Shown: positions 5,812 through 24,407 of the stretch, in pieces
Numbering within the stretch: position 1 is the first letter of the stretch
Layout of the letters: every line of letters starts with the position of its first letter
Assembly: GCF_004365815.1 (NCBI RefSeq)
Contig: NZ_SODD01000003.1
Location: forward strand, 60,001 to 92,000
Source: Breznakia blatticola
GTDB taxonomy: Bacteria; Bacillota_I; Bacilli_A; Erysipelotrichales; Erysipelotrichaceae
Length of the DNA stretch: 32,000 nt
Direction: 5' to 3'
The notes under the pieces: generated by a model
What the model was told of the DNA's origin: nothing
Databases searched by the model: none
The model's input: only the letters and a program-made list of their open reading frames with translations
Program-made: the position numbers and the translations under genes

Positions 5812-6198
5812 CTAGAGAAAACTTGAATGAATCACATCATTCACTTGAATTACATCTTTTCCTATAAATTTAAAATAGAAATTCTTTGTAGTTATTGAAT
5901 CAAACTTTGTTGTGTAATAAATAAGTCCATTGACAGTAACTTTAAATAATTCACGCTTTCCAATGGTTACCGTATCTTCTATTTGGCACACCACACTATT
6001 ATTTTCGGGAGAATCTAAAATTTTCCCAAATAAAAGTATTTTACAATCATATAGTTCATTCAATTTCATGAAATCGAAATTTTCTAAACTATATAAAGCT
6101 GAATCATCAAAACACTCATCTATAGTTAAGGTATCCTGATTTTGAAGATTTAATACTCTAGTCATTGCAGATTCCTTAATATTCAATAATTTGTACAT
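5812..6198 (-). CDS. hypothetical protein (128 aa)
   Basis: ORF with strong SD GGGAGG 6 nt before ATG 6198. No motif I recognise. Confidence 0.6.
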   Translation of the reverse strand: MYKLLNIKESAMTRVLNLQNQDTLTIDECFDDSALYSLENFDFMKLNELYDCKILLFGKILDSPENNSVVCQIEDTVTIGKRELFKVTVNGLIYYTTKFDSITTKNFYFKFIGKDVIQVNDVIHSSFL

Positions 6199-6590
6199 AT
6201 TAACCTCCCTATTTATTTACTGAGATAAAATAAAACGATAAAAACCATACTTCACATATGCAATAGTATATTTTGGAAAAAATCATCCATTATATATTTG
6301 CGATTTACACATACCTCTGTTTCTACTGTATTCATATTTCTCATACATAGAGATTTCTTTTTTCACCTACCTCTAGTACTTTTAAACCTATACGATGATA
6401 TTTGCATCACTATTCACAACGTGCTAAACTAAGTACGTCATTGTTATTCATTGACATTTCCTCCTTGTATTTATTGTTGAATGCAGTTGCTATGCCGCAC
6501 TTCAATCATCATACAGGAGGTTTTTTTCATTTTCCTCCACTAAAAATTATTAAGACTACTAAATTATGCAGAGTACTCTTTATACAACAG

Positions 6591-6613
6591 AAAAGCAGCA
6601 ACCGCTGCTTTTT
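6591..6613 (-). terminator. intrinsic terminator after the LytTR regulator gene
   Basis: AAAAGCAGC (6591..6599), loop aacc, GCTGCTTTT (6604..6612), a perfect 9-bp stem. It lies 9 nt downstream of the stop at 6622. Confidence 0.65.
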
Positions 6614-6621
6614 GTATTATA

Positions 6622-7293
6622 TTATAAAGTTTTCGCGCGTATGTAACGCAGTAATTTAGGTTTACGTGAGCGCGATATAGGTAGACGCACATGGTTATGT
6701 AGTTCTACTTCATCACCTTCAATTCTGAAAATATATTCATAATTGACAAGAATTCCGCTGTTTACCCGAACGAAATCGTATGGTTCAAACTCTTCACTTT
6801 TCTTGTTCATACTTCCACGTTCGTAAAATTCACCACGCTTTGTATAGTATACCAAGTTCTTTTCTTCTTTTATCACGTAATAAATGTCATGGTATTTCAA
6901 TTTCAATGTGACTCCATTATATGAGAATAAATACTCACTATGTTTACGTAAACGAATATTGATCATATCTTTGATGCGAACAAACTCATTGGCAAAATCC
7001 GAACGCTTGATGCGAAAGATTCGTCCATAGTTAACATTTTGACTTTCATATCCATCTTGGCATAAGTAAATATACACACTATTGCTTTTATCAAAATTCA
7101 ATGCAGATGTAATACGCACATTATTGTATGCCTCATTTAAAATGACAACATCAAATTGCCCTGTATCTTCTTTGACTAAATCCACAATCTTCTCATAGTA
7201 GTTAAACGTAAATTCATCACTTAGAATCTTCGGTAATAAGAAGATAACATCTTTAGCAATTTTTTCTTGTTCAACTATTGCAACTTTCAACAT
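6622..7293 (-). CDS. LytTR-family DNA-binding regulator with degenerate (non-phosphorylatable-looking) N-terminal receiver-like domain
   Basis: The C-terminal half (..LKYHDIYYVIKEEKNLVYYTKRGEFYERGSMNKKSEEFEPYDFVRVNSGILVNYEYI..) has the LytTR pattern. The start is moved to ATG 7293 (SD AGGAGA 8 nt upstream), because the track start at 7299 is a TTG. No sensor kinase is adjacent. Confidence 0.7.
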   Translation of the reverse strand: MLKVAIVEQEKIAKDVIFLLPKILSDEFTFNYYEKIVDLVKEDTGQFDVVILNEAYNNVRITSALNFDKSNSVYIYLCQDGYESQNVNYGRIFRIKRSDFANEFVRIKDMINIRLRKHSEYLFSYNGVTLKLKYHDIYYVIKEEKNLVYYTKRGEFYERGSMNKKSEEFEPYDFVRVNSGILVNYEYIFRIEGDEVELHNHVRLPISRSRKPKLLRYIRAKTL

Positions 7294-7351
7294 ACACAAA
7301 ATCTCCTACAGGTATTATACACTATTCTAATTTTTTCCCAAAGGATAATCG

Positions 7352-7380
7352 TTGACAAAATATCGAAACCGTTTTATTAT
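7352..7380 (+). promoter_or_regulatory. copA promoter
   Basis: TTGACA (7352..7357), 17 nt, TATTAT (7375..7380). Confidence 0.7.
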
Positions 7381-7383
7381 GAA

Positions 7384-7403
7384 TACACACCCCTAGGGGG
7401 TAT
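7384..7403. promoter_or_regulatory. CsoR-type operator (G/C-tract pseudo-palindrome)
   Basis: ATACACACCCCTAGGGGGTAT. The core CCCCTAGGGG (7390..7399) is a perfect palindrome flanked by ATAC/GTAT. It lies directly downstream of the -10 box, and a csoR gene is in the same operon. Confidence 0.7.
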
Positions 7404-7421
7404 TAGAAATGAGGTGTTACA

Positions 7422-9947
7422 ATGAAACAAAAAATCGATGTAACCGGAATGACATGTAGTGCTTGTGCTGCACATGTAGAAAAAGCAGTAAAGAAATTAC
7501 CAGGCACAAAAGAGGCTAATGTCAATTTAATGCAAAACAAATTACTCATTGATTACGATCCTAAAGTAACTAGTGAGCAAGATATCAGCAGTGCTATTGA
7601 AGCTGCAGGATATGGCGTAAAAAAAGAGGTGCAAACAGCCGATACAGAAAATCAATTTGCTAAACAAGCAAAACAGGAAAAGCGAAAACTTTGGATTTCT
7701 GTAATCTTATTGATCGTACTTATGTATATTTCTATGGGAAGTATGGTTGGCTTACCTTTACCATCCTTTTTAGATGGATTACATAATGCGATCACCTTTG
7801 CGATGGTTCAATCTCTTTTAACACTAGTTATCTTGAGTATGCATTTCCATTATTTTAAAAATGGCTTTAAGGCACTGATTCATCGTGCACCTACAATGGA
7901 TTCCTTAATTGCCTTAGGAAGTAGTGCTGCTTTACTTTATGGTATTTATGCAATTATCATGATGGGACAAGGTCTAGCAAATCAAGATATGCATATGGTT
8001 CACACATATCACATGGACTTATACTTTGAAAGTGCAGCAATGATTGTGACTTTAATTTCGGTAGGTAAATACTTAGAAACCCGTTCGAAAGGTAGAACCA
8101 ATGATGCCATTCAGAAATTAATGGATCTTACACCAAAAACCGCATTCGTTCAAAAAGGTGATCAAGTAATTGAAGTTTCCATTGAAGATGTGCAAAAAGA
8201 TGACATCTTAATTGTTAAGACTGGTGCAAGCATTCCTGTGGATGGAAAAATTATCGAGGGAAGTGGAACACTTGATGAAGCTTTAATTACTGGAGAAAGT
8301 ATTCCTGTTGAAAAACACGAAGCAGATAAAGTAATTGGTGGAACCATCCTTGTTTCTGGTTATATAAAAATGCAAGCACTTAGTGTTGGTGAAGATACAA
8401 CCATTGCTAAGATCATTCAACTTGTTGAAGATGCAAATGCCTCAAAGGCTCCAATTGCAAAACTTGCGGATAAAGTAAGTGCTGTATTCGTACCAATCGT
8501 TATTGTCATTGCAACTATTGCGACCATCACATGGTTAGCTCTAGGTTACGATCTTAGTTTCTCATTATCCATTGGTATTGCAGTTCTTATTATTAGTTGT
8601 CCTTGTGCACTTGGTTTAGCAACCCCAACAGCAATTATGGTTGCAACTGGAAAAGGTGCGCAATTAGGAATTCTATTCAAGAATGCCGAAAGCTTAGAAC
8701 AAGTTGGTAAAATGGATACTATCGTTTTAGATAAAACTGGTACCTTAACAAAAGGAAAACCGGAAGTTACTGATGTAGTAAGTGAAAATGAGATGCACTT
8801 ATATGCTGTTGCTTATGCACTTGAACATAGAAGTGAACATCCTCTAGCAAAAGCAATAATCAATTATACTAAAGATAAAGATATCGAAGCGATTCCTATT
8901 GAACAATTCGAACAAATCGCTGGACAAGGAATCAAAGCAAGTAGTGAGACAAACACCTATTTTGCTGGAAATGCAAAAATGATGGAAGTAAACCAAATAC
9001 AAATCGATGCTTATCAACAAGTTGCCTCGCAGTTTGCAAATGAAGGAAAAACTGTCTTGTACTTTGCTGAAAACAATCAAGTCATCGGACTGATTGCACT
9101 TGCAGATGTATTAAAAGATAGCAGTGTCGAAGCTATTGCAGCAATTAAGCAACTTGGTAAAGAAGTCGTGTTATTAACTGGTGATAACAAGCAAACTGCA
9201 GCCGCAATATCGAAAAAAGCAAATATCGATACCGTCATTGCTGAAGTATTACCACAAGATAAAGAAGAATATGTTCGTAAATTACAAGCGCAAGGAAAAC
9301 AAGTTGCCATGGTTGGTGATGGAATCAATGATGCACCTGCACTTGCCAGAGCAGATGTTGGAATTGCAATTGGTGCAGGAACCGAGATTGCCATGGAAAG
9401 TGCTGATGTTGTTTTAATGCACAGCGACTTAATGGATGTAGCAACAAGTATTCAATTAAGTAAAGCAACCATTCGCAATATCAAACAAAACTTATTTTGG
9501 GCATTCTTCTATAATGCCATCGGAATTCCATTAGCTGCAGGACTGTTCTATCCAACTTTCCAATTGAAACTAAACCCAATGTTTGGTTCAGCAGCAATGA
9601 GTTTATCCAGTTTATTTGTTGTAAGTAATGCATTGCGCTTACGTTTCTTTAAACCAACGTATACTAGCACAAGCTCACAACAACATGAAGTACATACAGA
9701 AACAATCGAAATAGACAAAAAGAAAGGAGGATTACCTATGAACAAAGTAATCCATATTAATGGCATGATGTGTGCCAACTGTGAACGTCACGTAAATAAC
9801 GCATTAAATGCACTAGATGGAGTTGAAGCAAAAGTGGATCTAGCAAATAATCTAGCAAATGTTACACTTTCAAAAGATGTTGATGATGCAACACTTACCA
9901 AAGCTGTTACTGATGCAGGATATGAAGTTACTTCCATTGAAGGTTAG
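7422..9947 (+). CDS. copA: copper-translocating P1B-type ATPase CopA with an N-terminal HMA domain and an unusual in-frame C-terminal CopZ-like HMA domain
   Basis: 841 aa. Motifs GMTCSACAAHVE, CPC (SCPCALGLATP), DKTGTLT, GDGINDAP. The C-terminal 69 aa are MNKVIHINGMMCANCERHV... The internal ATG 9738 is preceded by AAAGGAGG (9723..9730) with a 7-nt spacer. Confidence 0.95.
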   Translation: MKQKIDVTGMTCSACAAHVEKAVKKLPGTKEANVNLMQNKLLIDYDPKVTSEQDISSAIEAAGYGVKKEVQTADTENQFAKQAKQEKRKLWISVILLIVLMYISMGSMVGLPLPSFLDGLHNAITFAMVQSLLTLVILSMHFHYFKNGFKALIHRAPTMDSLIALGSSAALLYGIYAIIMMGQGLANQDMHMVHTYHMDLYFESAAMIVTLISVGKYLETRSKGRTNDAIQKLMDLTPKTAFVQKGDQVIEVSIEDVQKDDILIVKTGASIPVDGKIIEGSGTLDEALITGESIPVEKHEADKVIGGTILVSGYIKMQALSVGEDTTIAKIIQLVEDANASKAPIAKLADKVSAVFVPIVIVIATIATITWLALGYDLSFSLSIGIAVLIISCPCALGLATPTAIMVATGKGAQLGILFKNAESLEQVGKMDTIVLDKTGTLTKGKPEVTDVVSENEMHLYAVAYALEHRSEHPLAKAIINYTKDKDIEAIPIEQFEQIAGQGIKASSETNTYFAGNAKMMEVNQIQIDAYQQVASQFANEGKTVLYFAENNQVIGLIALADVLKDSSVEAIAAIKQLGKEVVLLTGDNKQTAAAISKKANIDTVIAEVLPQDKEEYVRKLQAQGKQVAMVGDGINDAPALARADVGIAIGAGTEIAMESADVVLMHSDLMDVATSIQLSKATIRNIKQNLFWAFFYNAIGIPLAAGLFYPTFQLKLNPMFGSAAMSLSSLFVVSNALRLRFFKPTYTSTSSQQHEVHTETIEIDKKKGGLPMNKVIHINGMMCANCERHVNNALNALDGVEAKVDLANNLANVTLSKDVDDATLTKAVTDAGYEVTSIEG

Positions 9948-16777: not shown

Positions 16778-16854
16778 AAACACCTCATCTATAATCATCT
16801 TCACTAGTATAGCATGAAACACAAAAGAACTCTTACTTCCTTATCATATTCATT

Positions 16855-16882
16855 AAAAAAGACTGACTACCTAAGTAATCAG
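16855..16882 (-). terminator. intrinsic terminator of nifJ
   Basis: Minus-strand RNA CTGATTAC-ttag-GTAGTCAG followed by TCTTTTTT. Confidence 0.7.
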
Positions 16883-16903
16883 CCCTTTACGCGTTATAGA
16901 ATA

Positions 16904-19900
16904 TTATTCAAATTCAGCTAATCCAGTTAAACGACGGAAACGTTTTTCAGCATCACTTCTAGTTTTAGCAAACGCAGCTTCTGCGTGTTCTTCACCAGTA
17001 AGTTTTAATAATGCAGAGTAACGAGTTTCATTCATAATAAATGTTTGGAACTTGTCGAAGTCTGGGTTTTTGAAGTCAATTTGTAATGGTTTTTCTAGGC
17101 GTGGATCGAAACGATATAATGGCCAGTAACCACATTCAACTGCAGCTTTTTGTGTTTTTTGGTGATTCATTAATCCACCTTTAATTCCGTGTTCAATACA
17201 TGGAGAGTAAGCGATAATTAATGAAGGTCCTTGGTAAGCTTCAGCTTCTTTAATTGCTTTTAATGTTTGGATCTTGTTAGCTCCCATTGCGATACTTGCA
17301 ACATATACATGTCCGTATGCCATAGCGATTTGTCCAAGATCTTTCTTAGCAGTTTGTTTACCACCAGCAGCGAATTTCGCAATACTTGCAGCTTGACTTG
17401 CTTTACTTGATTGTCCACCAGTGTTTGAGTAAACCTCAGTGTCAAGAACTAAGATGTTAACGTTTAATGCGTTAGCGATAACGTGGTCAAGTCCACCGTA
17501 TCCGATGTCATATGCCCATCCATCTCCACCAACGATCCAAATTGATTTGCCAACTAGGTCACGTTCGTAGTTTAATAATTCTTTAACTGCATCGTTTTTA
17601 CTTGCTTTTACACCAGCAACGATTGCATCTTTACAAGCACGTTGTGCATCACGGTTATCGTTAGCATCAATGTATGCTTGGAATGCTTCTTTTAATTCAG
17701 GTTCAACATCGTTGATGTTTTTTTCCATGATATCAAGGATTGTTCCTTCTTTGAATGTTTGTGCAAGCGCCATACCATATCCGTATTCAGCGTTGTCTTC
17801 AAATAGTGAGTTTGCCCATGCAACCCCTTCACCGTTTTTGTCAGCGATGAATGGTGTAGATGGAGTAGATCCACAGTAGATTGAAGAACATCCAGTAGCG
17901 TTAGCTACCATCATGTCTTTACCGTAAAGTTGAGAAATCAAACGGTAGTAAGGAGTTTCCCCACAACCTGGACATGATCCACTTACTTCGAAGTAAGGAG
18001 TCATGAATTGACTTTCTTTTACAGCGTTTGTTTCGTAGTAACCTAATTTAGGTTCAGTTTCTTTGTATAAGTAGTCAGCTAAAGGAGCTTCTGGTAATAC
18101 TTCGTGAATATCAACCATTTCAAGTGCTTTGTTTCCACCTTTACCTGGACATTCTACAGCACAAAGTCCACAACCAACACAGTTGTCTGGTGAAACTTGA
18201 ATGCGGTATTGGAATTCTTCAACACCTTTACCCATTGGCGTAATTGTTGTGAATTCTTGTGGTGCATTTTTAATGTCTTCTTCTGTTAATAAGAATTGAC
18301 GGATTGTAGCATGTGGACATACGAATGAACAGAATCCACATTGGATACAGTTTTCAGAATGCCATTTTGGTACTTCCGTTGCAATTGTACGTTTTTCCCA
18401 GAAAGAAACATTGTTTCTCATTGATCCATCAAGTAGATCGTATTTAGTAAATGCAGATACTGGTAAGTCGTATCCCATTGCCATGTTAATTGGAGCAACG
18501 TGTTTGTCGAAGTATTCATCTCCAGTTGTAGATGTTAATGGATCTGATTTTAAATCTGCCCATGCTGGATCAACAGTAACTTCAACTAAACCGGCTTTAC
18601 CTTCATCGATTGCTTTGTAGTTCATTTCTACAACTTCATCACCTTTTTTACCGTATGATTTTTTAGCAGCTGCTTTCATTAAGTCAATTGCTTTGTCATA
18701 AGGCATAATGTTTTCGTTAAGTGCGAAGAATGCAGATTGTAAGATTGTGTTTGTACGACGTCCCATACCAATCTTAGCAGCGATTTCAGTAGCATCAATG
18801 ATGTAGAATTTCGCATGTTTTTTCGCCAATTGTACTTTAATACGGTTTGGCATTTGGTTAATAATATCTTCTTTCTTGAATGTTGTGTTAAGTAAGAATG
18901 TTCCTCCATCTTTTAATGAACGAAGTAAGTCATACTTGAACATGTATGCATCAAGTGAGCAAGAAATAAAGTCAGCTTGGTTAATGTAGTAAGTTGAACG
19001 GATTGGACTTGATCCAAAACGTAAGTGACTACGTGTAACCCCACCAGCTTTTTTAGAGTCATATGCAAAGTAAGCTTGTGCATATAAGTCTGTGTTATCA
19101 CCGATAATTTTAATTGAGTTTTTGTTTGCAGATACAGTTCCATCTGATCCTAGACCCCAGAATAAACATGAAGTGTAGTCACTAGCAACTTTAAAGTCTG
19201 CATCTTCAGTTAATGATAAGTTTGTTACATCATCAACGATACCAATTGTAAATTCTTCTTTTGGTGCATCTTTAGCTAGTTCATCGTATACAGCTTTAAT
19301 TTGACCTGCAGTTGTGTCTTTTGAACCTAATCCGTAACGTCCACCAATAATTGTGATGTCTTTACGGTCTTTTAATACAGATAATACATCTAAGTATAAT
19401 GGTTCTCTAGCACCCATTTCTTTTGTACGGTCAAGAACTGCAATGCTCTTAACTGAACTTGGAAGTGCATCTAAGAAATATTTTGCAGAGAATGGACGGT
19501 ATAAGTGAACTTTCATAAGTCCTACTTTTTCTCCATTTTTGTTCATTGTATCAATTGTTTCTTGAATTGTTTCAGTTACTGAACCCATTGCGATAATGAT
19601 ACGTTCTGCATCTTCAGCACCATAGTAAGTAAATGGAGCGTAGTTACGTCCAGTTTGTTTACTGAATGCTTTCATGTAATCAGCTACGATATCTGCGATT
19701 GCAGCGTAGTGTTCGTTTTGTGCTTCTCTTCCTTGGAAGAAAATGTCATCGTTTTCTGCACCACCACGAGTCACAGGGTTAGTGTGTGGGTTTAATGCAT
19801 TTTGACGGAAGCGTTCTAATGCTTCTGTATCTAATTGTGATTTTAAGAAATCATAGTCCATTGTTTCAATTTTTTGAATTTCATGAGATGTTCTGAATCC

Positions 19901-20416
19901 ATCAAAGAAGTGGATAAATGGAACTGATCCTTTAATTGCAGCCAAGTGTGCAAGTCCACTTAAGTCCATTGCTTCTTGCACAGAGTGTGAAGCAAGAATT
20001 GCACATCCGATTTGACGACATGCGTAAACATCTTGGTGATCTCCAAAAATATTAAGTGCACGACTCGCTAAAGCACGAGCAGCAACGTGGATTACACCTG
20101 GTAATAATTCCCCAGTCATTTTGTAAATGTTTGGGATCATTAACAATAAACCTTGTGAAGCAGTGTATGTAGTTGACAACGTTCCACCCTGAAGCGCACC
20201 GTGTACTGCACCAGCAGCACCAGCTTCTGATTGTAACTCACTTACTTTCACTTTTTGTCCAAATACGTTTTCTTTACCTTGTGTTGACCAAGCGTCAGTC
20301 ACTTCAGCCATAGGTGAAGAAGGCGTAATTGGGTAAATTCCAGCAACTTCAGTAAGAGCGTATGACCCATATGCAGCAGCTGTATTTCCGTCCATAGACA
20401 CGAAATTTTTTGCCAT
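16904..20416 (-). CDS. nifJ: pyruvate:ferredoxin (flavodoxin) oxidoreductase, single-polypeptide PFOR
   Basis: About 1170 aa. Starts MAKNFVSMDGNTAAAYGSYALTEVAGIYPITPSSPMAE. Two ferredoxin-type clusters (CIQCGFCSFVCP, CVGCGLCAVECP) and a TPP-binding GGDGWAYDIGYGGLDH. The start is set to ATG 20416 (SD AGGAGGA), because the track start at 20449 has no SD. Confidence 0.95.
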   Translation of the reverse strand: MAKNFVSMDGNTAAAYGSYALTEVAGIYPITPSSPMAEVTDAWSTQGKENVFGQKVKVSELQSEAGAAGAVHGALQGGTLSTTYTASQGLLLMIPNIYKMTGELLPGVIHVAARALASRALNIFGDHQDVYACRQIGCAILASHSVQEAMDLSGLAHLAAIKGSVPFIHFFDGFRTSHEIQKIETMDYDFLKSQLDTEALERFRQNALNPHTNPVTRGGAENDDIFFQGREAQNEHYAAIADIVADYMKAFSKQTGRNYAPFTYYGAEDAERIIIAMGSVTETIQETIDTMNKNGEKVGLMKVHLYRPFSAKYFLDALPSSVKSIAVLDRTKEMGAREPLYLDVLSVLKDRKDITIIGGRYGLGSKDTTAGQIKAVYDELAKDAPKEEFTIGIVDDVTNLSLTEDADFKVASDYTSCLFWGLGSDGTVSANKNSIKIIGDNTDLYAQAYFAYDSKKAGGVTRSHLRFGSSPIRSTYYINQADFISCSLDAYMFKYDLLRSLKDGGTFLLNTTFKKEDIINQMPNRIKVQLAKKHAKFYIIDATEIAAKIGMGRRTNTILQSAFFALNENIMPYDKAIDLMKAAAKKSYGKKGDEVVEMNYKAIDEGKAGLVEVTVDPAWADLKSDPLTSTTGDEYFDKHVAPINMAMGYDLPVSAFTKYDLLDGSMRNNVSFWEKRTIATEVPKWHSENCIQCGFCSFVCPHATIRQFLLTEEDIKNAPQEFTTITPMGKGVEEFQYRIQVSPDNCVGCGLCAVECPGKGGNKALEMVDIHEVLPEAPLADYLYKETEPKLGYYETNAVKESQFMTPYFEVSGSCPGCGETPYYRLISQLYGKDMMVANATGCSSIYCGSTPSTPFIADKNGEGVAWANSLFEDNAEYGYGMALAQTFKEGTILDIMEKNINDVEPELKEAFQAYIDANDNRDAQRACKDAIVAGVKASKNDAVKELLNYERDLVGKSIWIVGGDGWAYDIGYGGLDHVIANALNVNILVLDTEVYSNTGGQSSKASQAASIAKFAAGGKQTAKKDLGQIAMAYGHVYVASIAMGANKIQTLKAIKEAEAYQGPSLIIAYSPCIEHGIKGGLMNHQKTQKAAVECGYWPLYRFDPRLEKPLQIDFKNPDFDKFQTFIMNETRYSALLKLTGEEHAEAAFAKTRSDAEKRFRRLTGLAEFE

Positions 20417-20653
20417 TTTGTTATGTCCTCCTTTAAACAGTCTTAGCATAAACCATTATAGTACTAATTAGTCGAAAAAAAAAGGGCTTTCCACGTTTTT
20501 GTTGAATGTAGAACCCATTTGCGAAAACCTTCACAAAGTTAGTATTCATCTAACTTTATGCTATTTTTTCACATTTTTGAAAAGGGTTTCAAAAAAACTG
20601 CCGTGATAGAAGCTCCTTTTTACTTATGTTATATTAAGATATCTCTAGAACGC

Positions 20654-20678
20654 AAATCTTGTTTCACCGTTTTTCAAG
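20654..20678. repeat. 25-bp direct repeat, left copy (orphan duplicate of the 3' end of the PfkB-like gene)
   Basis: AAATCTTGTTTCACCGTTTTTCAAG, 24/25 identical to 21961..21985. Confidence 0.9.
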
Positions 20679-20684
20679 ATACAC

Positions 20685-21086
20685 TTATGAATGAATGACT
20701 TTTATATCTGGTTCATAAGTTGTCAATATATCGATTACATCATCAATAGTAACTATAACTATATGTATAATTTCATCGACTGTATATATTCCACAACTTT
20801 CTTTTTCTAACCAAGATGCAAATGATGAATTTTCTACTTTGTAAAATGGCCAGTTTGAAAAATAGTATCGATCATTTTGTAATTTTTGATTTGCCATAAT
20901 TGTATTAATACGTTGTCCTTCATCTACATTTCTAAGTCCTAGTACAATTCCATTAAATAATATTTCTACTAGCATTTCCTCTTTTCGTAAAACTATCTTT
21001 GTATGTTTCGTATTTTGAACCAATTCATCAACTACATAACTACCTTTTTCGATTGACACAGGTGACCATTTTATCCATTTTTCCAT
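20685..21086 (-). CDS. hypothetical cytoplasmic protein (133 aa), islet gene 2
   Basis: ORF with SD GGAGA 6 nt before ATG 21086 (MEKWIKWSPVS...). No TM segment, signal peptide or recognisable motif. Confidence 0.6.
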   Translation of the reverse strand: MEKWIKWSPVSIEKGSYVVDELVQNTKHTKIVLRKEEMLVEILFNGIVLGLRNVDEGQRINTIMANQKLQNDRYYFSNWPFYKVENSSFASWLEKESCGIYTVDEIIHIVIVTIDDVIDILTTYEPDIKVIHS

Positions 21087-21181
21087 AAACTTTCTCCAAT
21101 CATTAAACAATCTTGATTACTCTATAAATCCAATCATTTTTAGTCTTACAGAAAACAAAAGTGCGAAGTCAAAGTAATCCA

Positions 21182-21703
21182 TTAGTTTGATATGCTTCCT
21201 TCAATGCCACCCGTTTCAGTTATAGCGTTGAGCACATGATACATCATACCTAAGAGAAATTTGTCAATCTTATTATCCTTATCTGATAACTCTTTAAAGA
21301 AAATCCCCTTTTTAGTTTTTAAATAAACTCTAACATTGTCACTATTGTAAAAGTCTGTTTTGTCTGTTTTTTTCATATATGGTAGAACTTGATGACTACT
21401 AATCAAAACTGATTGCATTGCGCGCATTACAGGATTTCTTTCCTCTAACCCCACAACAACAGAACCACTACCATGATATAAATGTGTATTCAGTCCAAAA
21501 ACAAGGGCTAAACTTTGTGTTTGAAATCCTACAATACCACTTTCAATAGGAATGTCAAAAACTGCAATATACACTTGCTCATCATTATCAAGTCTTAAAT
21601 TCATATCTTCATTTGTATACTGTAGAACCTGATCTCTATTGGCGATATATGTTGGACTCACGTTTAAACCTTCTACAAATTCAAAAATACTTTCTTTACT
21701 CAT
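21182..21703 (-). CDS. hypothetical cytoplasmic protein (173 aa), islet gene 1
   Basis: ORF with strong SD GAGGAGGAG before ATG 21703 (MSKESIFEFVEG...). No recognisable motif. Confidence 0.6.
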   Translation of the reverse strand: MSKESIFEFVEGLNVSPTYIANRDQVLQYTNEDMNLRLDNDEQVYIAVFDIPIESGIVGFQTQSLALVFGLNTHLYHGSGSVVVGLEERNPVMRAMQSVLISSHQVLPYMKKTDKTDFYNSDNVRVYLKTKKGIFFKELSDKDNKIDKFLLGMMYHVLNAITETGGIEGSISN

Positions 21704-21797
21704 AATACTCCTCCTCATTCATATGTATAACTCTATTATCGTTGGAAATGTTCTTATATTTATATTATTAACCAAATCAGCATTACCTCCACATATT

Positions 21798-21846
21798 AAA
21801 AAAGTGCAAAGTAAAATAACAAACGTTTTGCTTCTTAACTTCGCAC
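21798..21846 (-). terminator. intrinsic terminator between the PfkB-like gene and the islet genes
   Basis: Minus-strand RNA GTGCGAAGT (21846..21838) pairs with ACTTTGCAC (21812..21804), 9 bp with one G-U and a 25-nt loop, followed by TTTTTT. Confidence 0.55.
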
Positions 21847-21960
21847 ACATAATATACACACTCTAACATATAATATACGTTAATTTCTATATATCTTTAT
21901 CTTCAGCATTTCATTTCCAGCTATGCCTGATTTTTATTCAGCTTTTATAAATAGCACCAT

Positions 21961-21985
21961 AAATCTTGTTTCATCGTTTTTCAAG
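21961..21985. repeat. 25-bp direct repeat, right copy (covers the last 4 codons, the stop and 10 nt of 3' UTR of the PfkB-like gene)
   Basis: AAATCTTGTTTCATCGTTTTTCAAG. Its minus-strand reading is CTT GAA AAA CGA TGA + AACAAGATTT. Confidence 0.9.
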
Positions 21986-22870
21986 TTTTCCACAAACGAT
22001 TTTGCTTTTGATTTGTTCTACAGTGTCCTTGCTACCTGCAAAGATTCCGCTACTTAAGCTACTTGCCACATTACGCGCAAGACACTCTTGAATAAAGCGT
22101 GTAATATCTCCTTCATTTTCGTAGCATATTGCAATACCTGATGCAATCGCACCTAGATAACTTTGATTACTTTCATCTTTAACTGCACATGAACCATAGT
22201 ACATTTGATTTTCAACACTCACGATAATGCGATTGTTTTTCATTGCAAGTACGATAATTCGTGCGTATTTATGTAGCTCAGTTGTAAGTGCTTGAATCTT
22301 ATCCTGATCCAAAGCATCAATTTCGTATATATGTGCAAGTTCATCAAAGTCAAATACAAGTACATTGTAATATACATCTTGATGTACAACTTTCTCTACA
22401 GGTAATACACCTACAAGAATATCGACATGCTCTTTACACATTTGACTTAAATACTCTAATTGATTTGTGCTTGCATCTTGGCCATCACAAATAATTGCGA
22501 TATCACTTTTTTGTAACTTACTTTGTGCAAGCATACGATACAGTTGCATCTGTGAACCATCTAGTTCCATTTCATGTTCTGTCATGCTATGCAGCAATGT
22601 ATCATCTTCATACATCGATACTTGTAATTTATTGTGAGCAGTAATTTCTAGAACTTCAGTGTTAGCAATATCTACAAATTTGGTGGCATCACTAGCTAAC
22701 ATCATCATTTGTTTGCATGCAAGCCCTTCTTGCTGTATGTATGATTGACATTGCAAACCATCACCCATCACTTGATAGGTAATATGTTCACTATAAAACT
22801 GTCCATCTTCATCTGTTTTTCCACGTACTACTTTTTGTAGGTATGGATATAAGGATAAGATTTGTATCAT
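21971..22870 (-). CDS. PfkB/1-phosphofructokinase-like protein with degenerate catalytic motifs (family call by eye)
   Basis: 299 aa. The ATG overlaps the nnr stop (ATGA), with SD GGAGGAA. The layout resembles PfkB sugar kinases (MIQILSLYPYLQKVV.., ..IIVLAMKNNRIIV.., ..NQSYLGAIASGIAICYENEG..), but GGKG and GAGD signatures are not conserved. Confidence 0.45.
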   Translation of the reverse strand: MIQILSLYPYLQKVVRGKTDEDGQFYSEHITYQVMGDGLQCQSYIQQEGLACKQMMMLASDATKFVDIANTEVLEITAHNKLQVSMYEDDTLLHSMTEHEMELDGSQMQLYRMLAQSKLQKSDIAIICDGQDASTNQLEYLSQMCKEHVDILVGVLPVEKVVHQDVYYNVLVFDFDELAHIYEIDALDQDKIQALTTELHKYARIIVLAMKNNRIIVSVENQMYYGSCAVKDESNQSYLGAIASGIAICYENEGDITRFIQECLARNVASSLSSGIFAGSKDTVEQIKSKIVCGKLEKR

Positions 22871-24366
22871 CTATGTTCCTCCAATTTCCGTAATACTTGT
22901 TGTATTTCTTTTAATACATCTGTTGGTAATAACGAGAATACGCTTTTTCGTTTTTTCACTCGATCTCCAGCATATGCATGTAAAAATACACCCAGTACTG
23001 CAGCTTTTGCAGCATCTTCATTTTGTGCATACAAACCAGTAATACAACCAGCAAGCACATCACCACTTCCACCTTTTGCCAAGCCATTATTTCCATAGGT
23101 GTTAATCCATACTTCATCTTTATGGAAAATCAGTGTTGTTTCACTTTTTAAAACAAGTGTTGCCTTTGGAAATTTCTCCATAAATTTCTTACCCCAATAA
23201 AGAAAATCATCAATCACTTCTTTCGTGGTAATATTCATAATATCTGCGAATTCTTTTGGATGTGGTGTCAATATTACATGCTCACGGTCCGTATAATGAT
23301 CTTGAATTTGACGGAATGCCCATAGACCATCCGCATCAATAATTAATGGTTTTTTACTATCAAGAAGCATTTTTACCATATCAACCACAGCTTCACTTCG
23401 TCCAATCCCACAACCAACTAAGATTACACTGTATGGATCTAGTTGTGCTTGTAGTTCATCGACTGCTTTAGGTGCAATAATACCTGCTACATCTGATAAA
23501 GGAATAATCATTGATTCAAATACATTGGTCGCAATCACTTCACGTACACTTTCCGGTACAGCACAAGTCATCATTCCAGCACCACTACGTAATGCACTTA
23601 AACTAGCCATTGTGATTGCTCCACTCATGTGGATACTTCCACCAACACATAATACCTTTCCATAATCTGCTTTATTGGAATGCATAAAACGATCTGGTAG
23701 GAAATCTACCATTTCTTTCTTGGCAATCAAATGCGTTTTAGGGTGAATCGATTGTATATACATCTCAGGAATTCCGATATCAAGGATATGGACATTTCCT
23801 GCATGCAATCGCCCTGGATAAATATATAAACCGATTTTCCCAGTTTGTAAGGTATAGGTTTCGTGAGCTTGTACAGCAACACCCAACACCTTACCTGTTG
23901 CACTATCTACTCCACTAGGAATATCCACTGCAATAATGCGTTTTTCTGATGCATTCATCTGCTCGATTACATCTTTATATGTACCTTGAATGTCACGATC
24001 CAAACCCGTACCAAAAACACAATCCACAAGCACTGTTGCCTCCTCAAATATATCGATAAATGGTACACCTGCAACGACACATGACTCGCGATTCATGCGT
24101 GTTTCTAAACTTAATTTCGTTGTTTCTAGCGGAAAGATAAATACGTCATAGTCTGCTGCATAAAGTAGACGACTAAGCACATAGCCATCTCCTCCATTAT
24201 TCCCTCCTCCACACACAATGACAATCTTTTCCGTTTTCTCAACGTTTTGCACGAAAGCTTCAAATAGTGCATTCCCTGCTTGTTCCATCAATTGAAGACT
24301 TGGAATTCCCCCATCAATAGCCATTTGGTCAACTTCATGCATTTGCTTTCCTGTAAGTATTTGCAT
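22867..24366 (-). CDS. nnr: bifunctional NAD(P)H-hydrate repair enzyme Nnr (NnrE epimerase + NnrD ADP-dependent dehydratase; YjeF)
   Basis: About 499 aa. The N-terminal YjeF_N part is ILTGKQMHEVDQMAIDGGIPSLQLMEQAG...CGGGNNGGDGYV. The C-terminal kinase-fold part is ..LAKGGSGDVLAGCITGLYAQ.. The start is set to ATG 24366 (MQILTGKQM). Confidence 0.9.
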   Translation of the reverse strand: MQILTGKQMHEVDQMAIDGGIPSLQLMEQAGNALFEAFVQNVEKTEKIVIVCGGGNNGGDGYVLSRLLYAADYDVFIFPLETTKLSLETRMNRESCVVAGVPFIDIFEEATVLVDCVFGTGLDRDIQGTYKDVIEQMNASEKRIIAVDIPSGVDSATGKVLGVAVQAHETYTLQTGKIGLYIYPGRLHAGNVHILDIGIPEMYIQSIHPKTHLIAKKEMVDFLPDRFMHSNKADYGKVLCVGGSIHMSGAITMASLSALRSGAGMMTCAVPESVREVIATNVFESMIIPLSDVAGIIAPKAVDELQAQLDPYSVILVGCGIGRSEAVVDMVKMLLDSKKPLIIDADGLWAFRQIQDHYTDREHVILTPHPKEFADIMNITTKEVIDDFLYWGKKFMEKFPKATLVLKSETTLIFHKDEVWINTYGNNGLAKGGSGDVLAGCITGLYAQNEDAAKAAVLGVFLHAYAGDRVKKRKSVFSLLPTDVLKEIQQVLRKLEEHR

Positions 24367-24382
24367 ATGGCTATTATACAAC

Positions 24383-24407
24383 AAAAAAGAGGCAATATGC
24401 CCCTCTT
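24383..24407 (-). terminator. weak intrinsic terminator after the 140-aa hypothetical gene
   Basis: Minus-strand RNA AAGAGG-ggcatattg-CCTCTT followed by TTTTG. Confidence 0.45.

Follow-up and report, generated by a model that had tools for sequence, protein, structure and literature searches.

A strain-variable islet with an integration-like scar in Breznakia blatticola, probably a small orphan-immunity locus

Introduction

A 32-kb stretch of Breznakia blatticola DNA (contig NZ_SODD01000003.1, positions 60,001-92,000, assembly GCF_004365815.1; hereafter the window) contains two small genes that are bracketed by a 25-nt direct repeat of the 3' end of a neighbouring gene. Their products, of 173 and 133 amino acids (aa), are called Y and Z here. 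The locus raises the question of how such genes came to lie between two copies of a gene end, whether they act together, and what they might act against. A preliminary description, made from the sequence letters and a list of open reading frames (ORFs), had read the segment as an inserted cassette and as a candidate two-gene accessory system. We show here that the segment is indeed an insertion and that its content differs between strains, and we find that the families of Y and Z are each linked elsewhere to toxins. The islet is probably a small, strain-variable orphan-immunity (polyimmunity) locus with an attL/attR-like integration scar.

Results

The islet was inserted at a gene 3' end

All genes of the region lie on the minus strand, in the order nnr, 299-aa ORF, hairpin with U-run, Y, Z and PFOR. 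In window coordinates the features are:

22867-24384, minus strand: nnr, with YjeF_N and Carb_kinase domains
21971..22870, minus strand: gene for a 299-aa protein, translationally coupled to nnr; its 3' end is the insertion target
21961..21985, minus strand: proximal, attL-like repeat copy, made up of the last four codons (L E K R) and stop of the 299-aa gene and the 10 nt after it
21798..21846, minus strand: intrinsic-terminator-like hairpin and U-run, within the inserted DNA and common to alleles A, B and C
21713..21793, minus strand: spacer of 81 nt, found only in the window's allele by blastn between alleles
21182..21703, minus strand: Y, a 173-aa acidic cytoplasmic protein, predicted from the gene context of its family to be an orphan immunity protein
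20685..21086, minus strand: Z, a 133-aa acidic cytoplasmic protein, likewise predicted from family gene context to be an orphan immunity protein
20654..20678, minus strand: distal orphan, attR-like repeat copy, beginning 6 nt past the stop of Z
20450..20653, minus strand: PFOR promoter and leader region, homologous to the sequence directly after the 299-aa gene in the empty-site genome
16904-20449, minus strand: PFOR, the gene after the islet

The repeat reads AAATCTTGTTTCA[C/T]CGTTTTTCAAG, with the core sequence AACTTGAAAARCGRTGAAACAAGATTT. Its left copy (20654-20678, AAATCTTGTTTCACCGTTTTTCAAG) and right copy (21961-21985, AAATCTTGTTTCATCGTTTTTCAAG) are identical at 24 of 25 positions and lie 1307 nt apart, as the preliminary description had reported, and its account of the right copy as the end of the 299-aa gene and of the left copy as an orphan just past the 133-aa ORF was also borne out. 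With up to three mismatches allowed, these two are the only matches in the window, where none would be expected (0 in 100 shuffles). In a self-alignment of the islet the pair scores 45, a value reached in one of 100 dinucleotide shuffles. A second short motif noted earlier, at 21800-21819 and 21157-21177, is present but at chance level, with equal or better self-matches in 39 of 100 shuffles; it is also less similar in other alleles, and we rejected it as a cassette boundary. The G+C content of the islet is 28-32%, against 34-40% in its flanks.

The preliminary description had proposed an insertion at the gene end with duplication of an att-like core, and had suggested looking for an empty site in relatives. 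Such a site exists. Among species-representative genomes the 299-aa protein has a single relative, 60.5% identical, in Erysipelotrichaceae bacterium MTC7 (contig L015), where the neighbourhood is collinear with that of the window (DUF6198, a 139-aa ORF, nnr, the 299-aa gene, PFOR, hydrolase genes and DegV genes). In MTC7 the end of the 299-aa gene (...CTTGAAAATCGATGAAACA) directly adjoins the PFOR promoter region, and PFOR starts 214 nt further on. By blastn, window 22090-21967 aligns with L015 10781-10904 and window 20678-20381 with L015 10886-11183 (79.7%), and a single 19-nt stretch, L015 10886-10904, aligns to both repeat copies. The sequence below the distal copy is therefore the ancestral downstream region of the 299-aa gene, which resumes directly past that copy. 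MTC7 carries an empty-site allele with a single core. Against this uninterrupted site, the occupied one shows a core at either end, and the intervening DNA was therefore inserted at the very 3' end of the 299-aa gene, duplicating a core of about 25 nt.

Islet content varies between strains within fixed boundaries

Exact-protein look-ups recovered further alleles of the islet from other Breznakia strains. Allele A, the window's own, is 100% identical in L006/L088. Allele B, in the Breznakia genome GCA_029892945.1 (L001), has 3.56 kb between the same repeats and carries, in order, Imm32, DUF4279, a decayed DUF6883, DUF4926, a decayed fragment, DUF7674, Y and Z. The decayed DUF6883 reconstructs from its fragment; a reading of the second decayed fragment as Ntox50 was dropped, as Pfam gave no confirmation. 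Allele C is allele B minus about 310 nt internally. Alleles A and B have in common their first ~190 nt, which end with the terminator, and all the sequence that follows a point 9 nt ahead of the Y start codon. Between these shared parts, blastn finds 81 unique nt in A and 2.3 kb in B, and in B and C together the place of the 81-nt spacer of A is taken by 2.0-2.3 kb of extra cassettes. The earlier statement that exactly two ORFs lie between the repeats is correct for the window but does not describe a unit, since the same interval holds five or six genes in other strains. In every Breznakia allele Y and Z are kept together at the end nearest PFOR, and Y is 97-98% identical between strains.

The repeat, whose conservation the preliminary description had made a test of its reading, is kept at either end of the islet in all three of alleles A, B and C. 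In B and C it extends to 27 nt, and each lineage shows one mismatch of its own. In a more divergent strain (allele E, metagenomic contig L005) the islet contains a truncated group II intron (RF02001, 94.6 bits; RF01998, 45.5 bits), and the intron-Z fusion is followed by a distal repeat decayed by three mismatches and then by the PFOR upstream region. The intron, which has Rfam D1-D4 domains and a reverse transcriptase with an internal deletion, is in frame with the last 47 codons of Z, and the fusion (L005 1-1125) is either a real rearrangement of the islet or an assembly chimera. A reverse-transcriptase domain match among the Z hits (P0122), considered as a retroelement clue for Z, proved to be a truncated group II intron on the 3' end of Z in another strain.

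These alleles show that the content of the islet is strain-variable within fixed boundaries, and one ancestral integration followed by internal remodelling explains them most simply. As they differ by internal replacements, the remodelling is not taking place at the repeats. Candidates for further alleles among Logan contigs turned out to be partial copies of C (L082-L086) and of B (L002-L004). We also considered, and rejected, an integron-like cassette array: no integrase was found, and the cassettes share no junction motifs other than two pairs in allele B. Of these, a ~24-nt motif (TTGGATAGGGTTCGG core) lies at the 5' junction of two inner cassettes (L001 8484-8507 with 9077-9100), and a 16-nt motif lies just before the downstream small gene of the same two cassettes (L001 8788-8803 with 9392-9407). 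They look like conserved ends of decayed toxin genes of one family. In allele C the deletion of ~310 nt has produced a fusion ORF (L081 6131-6367) that combines the start of DUF4926 with the decayed toxin-like fragment before DUF7674.

Relatives of Z directly follow toxins

Z appeared to be an orphan in a word-indexed search, and an exhaustive HMMER search then recovered 621 representative proteins (E <= 0.001). Most are about 135 aa long and carry the motifs W..W.P, DEG.R, F(F/Y)KV.NS.Y..W and H...T...D...EP; some are tandem fusions of about 275 aa. Neither Z nor its relatives have a meaningful Pfam match, and for Z there is none in NCBIfam, PADLOC or PHROGs, nor any relative in a PDB sequence search. 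The protein has an isoelectric point (pI) of about 5.1 and a grand average of hydropathicity (GRAVY) of -0.12, with no strongly hydrophobic character.

The gene context of the family was read from three independent cases (L075, L077 and L079). In Salipaludibacillus agaradhaerens (L075 6298-7995) the Z-family gene begins 5 nt after the gene for a 565-aa LXG protein (Pfam, E 5e-58) and is followed by a CdiI_3 immunity gene. On two Logan contigs, L077 (1-1665) and L079 (5269-7992), it begins 9-12 nt after genes for proteins of at least 554 aa and of 907 aa, and on one of the two a run of small genes comes after it. The three large proteins share only a C-terminal domain of about 85 aa, which is 46-50% identical (...GTLPDGR.VNVR..S.DGRPTLEI....IKIRY) and has no match in Pfam or among PDB sequences; the N-terminal regions of the L077 and L079 proteins have no Pfam match. 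Polymorphic toxin-immunity pairs are defined by a layout in which one conserved toxin tip is joined to varied delivery domains and a small gene comes directly next. In all three contexts Z homologs stand in this way, directly after toxins with a common C-terminal domain and differing N-terminal regions.

Two forms of the family deserve a brief mention. The tandem Z-Z fusions P0128, P0144 and P0149 (274-280 aa) resemble the 'polyimmunity proteins' of the literature. The 2,774-aa protein P0124 matches residues 45-96 of Z in 26 separate stretches, and appears from these matches to be a repeat protein built from part of the Z fold.

Many relatives of Y belong to a type VII secretion toxin module

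Y has no family in Pfam, NCBIfam, PADLOC or PHROGs, apart from a weak and implausible PADLOC match to Cas5b (E 0.003). It has at least 208 homologs, typically 55-70% identical, in Listeria, Enterococcus, Pseudolactococcus, Amphibacillus and many metagenomic Bacillota. The protein has a pI of about 5.1 and a GRAVY of -0.18, with no strongly hydrophobic character. In Listeria and in Pseudolactococcus raffinolactis its gene lies inside a locus for a type VIIb secretion system (T7SSb; T7SS for type VII systems in general), in the order EssC, EsxC, WXG100, DUF5081, a gene of ~100 aa, a protein of 443-556 aa with a weak PT-TG pre-toxin match, a protein of 130-135 aa that we call X, and Y. The C-terminal domains (~130 aa) of the Listeria and Pseudolactococcus toxins are 58% identical and their N-terminal regions 35%, and the X proteins are 50% identical. 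The ~130-aa domain has no match in Pfam, NCBIfam or PDB sequences, and a PDB sequence search found relatives neither of Y nor of the toxin linked to it.

The gene order was examined in 41 loci whose sequence extends at least 1 kb upstream of Y. In 29 of them the toxin C-terminal domain is followed by one ORF of 107-158 aa and then by Y, with near-constant spacing; the other 12 have no such toxin. Because many of the loci are near-identical copies, these counts overstate the number of independent contexts. The ORFs in the slot between toxin and Y form one family, X, in 16 of 17 unique sequences, and Z, tried as a member of that family, gave no hmmsearch match. The Y homologs thus stand beside a T7SS-delivered toxin with a co-varying C-terminal domain, and it is X that lies immediately downstream of the toxin.

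The orphan copies of Y that we inspected are found downstream of other T7SS toxins, as in L026, among rows of small genes and toxin fragments. On a 252-kb plasmid of Agathobacter rectalis, Y comes after EsxB, DUF5081, a TNT-related toxin and neighbouring genes. That orphan copies persist intact speaks for a protective role of Y. No toxin, no X and no toxin remnant of the cognate families of Y or Z was found in any islet allele (every match had E > 0.1).

Toxin, X and Y form a conserved three-gene module of T7SSb loci (L008 5953-8495, with the 556-aa Listeria toxin at 5953-7623; L012 5783-8495). This may be a two-immunity arrangement, or one of immunity protein and accessory factor, for an uncharacterised T7SS toxin domain, with Y as its strongly conserved neutraliser of a previously undescribed fold.

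Discussion

The data presented here suggest the following course of events. An ancestor of these Breznakia strains would have gained the islet between the nnr/299-aa operon and PFOR, when an element with its own copy of the gene end integrated site-specifically at the 3' end of the target gene. The recombinase would since have been lost, or would always have acted in trans, leaving the islet as an immobile relic whose orphan repeat copy drifts. Between the same boundaries the content would then have been remodelled, to two genes, to five or six, or to a form with a truncated group II intron. The cargo, judging from gene context, would be orphan immunity genes against type VII-secreted polymorphic toxins: Y and Z would each bind and block its own matching toxin domain when this is delivered by competitors. 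The islet would thereby serve as a miniature heterogeneous polyimmunity, or acquired interbacterial defence (AID), locus that gives pre-emptive protection against competing Bacillota.

In this sense the islet is a small representative of a type of defence islet already known, and no new kind of system. Heterogeneous polyimmunity loci are co-oriented, strain-variable sets of immunity genes without a toxin, for which pre-emptive protection against non-kin toxins has been proposed (Zhang et al. 2012, PMC3482391). Like them, the islet has tandem co-oriented small genes of unrelated families and of immunity type without an intact toxin gene, its gene content varies between close strains (alleles A, B, C and E and the empty site), and alleles B and C include the named family Imm32; unlike them, the window's allele consists of two genes, neither in a named Imm family, and the islet is bounded by a direct repeat of a gene end, with a documented empty site and no adjacent recombinase. 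Orphan immunity genes have also been reported in the variable regions of Listeria T7SSb loci (PMC10327511). Y-family genes occur in these very regions, with or without an intact upstream toxin, whereas the Breznakia orphans lie between housekeeping genes and not beside a T7SS locus. In the AID and recombinase-associated AID (rAID) clusters of Bacteroidales, horizontally gained arrays of orphan immunity genes act against the toxins of other species, some in association with recombinases or mobile elements (bioRxiv 10.1101/471110). The islet shares with them its acquired orphan immunity-type genes, but theirs are larger, are directed against toxins of type VI secretion systems and belong to Gram-negative bacteria, and in the islet neither a recombinase nor a repeated site between cassettes was found.

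Several of our results weigh against this reading of the islet, and it is convenient to give them together with the alternatives that they bear on. The immunity role of Y and Z is inferred from gene context, and no convincing promoter was found in the gap upstream of Y, which the preliminary description had called promoter-sized. The structure prediction and Foldseek comparison that it had recommended gave models for both proteins but no significant fold match for either. The AlphaFold2 model of Y (predicted local distance difference test score, pLDDT, 89.4; predicted template modelling score 0.86) is a mixed sheet packed on helices, with no significant PDB neighbour (best E 0.04, template modelling (TM) score <= 0.3). 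For the Z model (pLDDT 82.9) the top Foldseek match is chain D of 8owu, with a probability of 0.90, a non-significant E of 0.12 and a TM score of 0.41-0.46. From its length of 114 residues this chain would be PIM7, the small immunity protein encoded downstream of PT7, a short C-terminal DNase toxin fused to LXG in Bacillus cereus (PDB 8owu; bioRxiv 10.1101/2021.10.19.465003). Z relatives too follow LXG proteins, but neither the Z family nor its toxin domain has any sequence link to PIM7 or PT7, and we take the structural match as no more than a lead. At the Y loci it is X that holds the usual cognate position, directly after the toxin with overlapping start and stop, and Y comes second. Y (55-70% identity) is also far more conserved than X (about 30-50%), about as conserved as the toxin domain or more so, and more conserved than most immunity proteins. 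Rather than being the primary immunity protein of its module, Y could on these grounds be a second one, or an accessory factor of another kind. The same two features would suit a Y that is no immunity protein at all but a conserved accessory factor (a folding or export chaperone, an activator, or a second immunity partner), whose Breznakia copy would be a functionless leftover, and two-immunity arrangements have been described for other toxins (PMC12744356, PMC11699363). We consider this unlikely: intact orphans make up 12 of the 41 loci and occur in all Breznakia alleles, often within orphan immunity-type arrays, a persistence that would be hard to explain if Y served its own toxin alone. That Y and Z together form one functional system (toxin-antitoxin, anti-phage or similar), as first proposed, seems to us hardly credible. 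They are adjacent and co-oriented, 95 nt apart, and are found together in every Breznakia allele, but none of the 67 Y loci outside Breznakia, from about 11 distinct genomic contexts, contains Z, nor does L092, which holds the closest foreign Y (73% identity) and whose DNA similarity to Breznakia is limited to the Y coding region, with unrelated neighbours. The Z-family genes of the three contexts above follow their own toxins, without Y, the wider alleles are series of independent small genes, and the weak Cas5b match to Y is the sole anti-phage model match of either protein, none being found in PADLOC for Z. As each belongs to a different toxin-linked family, Y and Z are best seen, on the sequence data, as two independent orphan immunity-type genes and not as a pair. 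Of the accessory module in the preliminary description, immunity, which was among the functions it listed, is retained; the anti-phage function and the two-gene system, whose failure to co-occur elsewhere it had itself named as grounds for rejection, are not.

For the orphan-immunity islet as we read it, a further question is how the repeat arose. Islands that carry an integrase classically insert at the 3' end of a gene and restore that end with sequence of their own. We tentatively take site-specific integration of this kind as the most likely origin, at somewhat below even odds, because the proximal copy of the 25-27-nt duplication completes the target gene and a relative has a single-core empty site. 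Cis-mobilisable derivatives of integrative and conjugative elements in the 3' end of fda of Streptococcus thermophilus are integrase-less and flanked by att repeats. Like these, the islet has direct repeats of ~25-27 bp from the 3' end of a protein gene, no integrase inside and empty sites in relatives; unlike these, it has no related integrase-bearing element that we could find for its core, and its cargo is immunity genes only. Against site-specific integration, no recombinase domain or remnant was found in the islet ORFs, in any other allele or in the 32-kb window, the first of which agrees with the preliminary description; no integrase lies in or beside the islet. The core shows no obvious recombinase-site symmetry, inverted-repeat architecture or structure, and no attP-like copy of it was found as an exact match in viral contigs or JGI metagenome contigs. 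The islet DNA has no phage match, and its sole plasmid match is the Y coding region. These findings would favour a duplication made without a site-specific recombinase, by a staggered break, replication template switching or homology-facilitated illegitimate recombination with fill-in that duplicated the target. Such a capture is a serious but less likely alternative, as 25-27 nt is long for a target duplication by fill-in, restoration of the 3' end is an integrase signature, and the databases scanned for the core are limited in range. It could also be asked whether the islet still moves, as an integrase-less, cis-mobilisable unit whose repeats are live att sites for a recombinase encoded elsewhere. 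In favour of this, three alleles have two nearly perfect repeat copies, cargo varies from strain to strain, and polyimmunity loci sometimes adjoin XerC/D-type recombinases (PMC3482391). The alleles differ, however, by internal insertions and deletions rather than by exchange at the repeats; in L005 the distal copy has decayed; the viral and JGI scans gave no further instance of the core; and no excised or empty form was seen among the Breznakia contigs. Ongoing mobility is therefore unlikely, and a still mobile islet of this form very improbable. Scarcely more probable is the bolder idea that the repeat is a live site, at the 3' end of the 299-aa gene, at which an integrase-less carrier of immunity genes is loaded, unloaded or moved by a recombinase encoded elsewhere; if true, it would make the islet a Bacillota counterpart of the recombinase-associated immunity arrays of Bacteroidales, aimed at T7SS toxins.

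Read as an orphan-immunity locus, the islet offers context-based predictions of function for two families that are unannotated in the libraries searched, with at least 208 relatives of Y and at least 621 representative clusters of Z. It also points to two uncharacterised C-terminal domains of T7SS/LXG toxins and to the toxin-X-Y module. Moreover, it provides a clean minimal case of orphan immunity genes settling among housekeeping genes, with both boundaries, the empty site, and stages of decay and remodelling in view. Finally, it suggests that contact-dependent toxin warfare shapes even the small genomes of insect-gut Erysipelotrichaceae.

Neighbouring genes and a second variable site

The nnr stop and the 299-aa gene overlap by 4 nt, and the two genes are neighbours in MTC7 as well. 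The product of the 299-aa gene had been described as PfkB-like; we found no PfkB match, nor any other, in Pfam, NCBIfam or PDB sequence searches, and the protein is possibly an uncharacterised partner in NAD(P)HX repair. For the hairpin at 21798-21846 the folding energy is -17.5 kcal/mol (z -3.5), and a U-run follows it, although a strict terminator scan missed it. More probably it terminates the nnr/299-aa operon than belongs to Y and Z, as whose own upstream terminator it had been described. No known RNA family was found in the region, and the remaining genes of the window are metabolic and regulatory.

On the other side of the islet, PFOR (window 16904-20449; L015 11115-14660) shows 98.6% protein and 96% DNA identity between Breznakia and MTC7, whereas the genes flanking it reach only 60-80% protein identity and its upstream region ~80% DNA identity. 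This suggests that PFOR was recently exchanged by recombination, with a boundary near the islet, or is under extreme constraint. In strains with allele B, a gene for a 490-aa ApeA-like HEPN protein (PF18862 and PF18739; L001 14851-16323), encoded on the opposite strand, separates PFOR from the first hydrolase gene; the window has a gap of 81 nt in that place (16823-16903). This site is a second strain-variable accessory spot, across PFOR from the islet.

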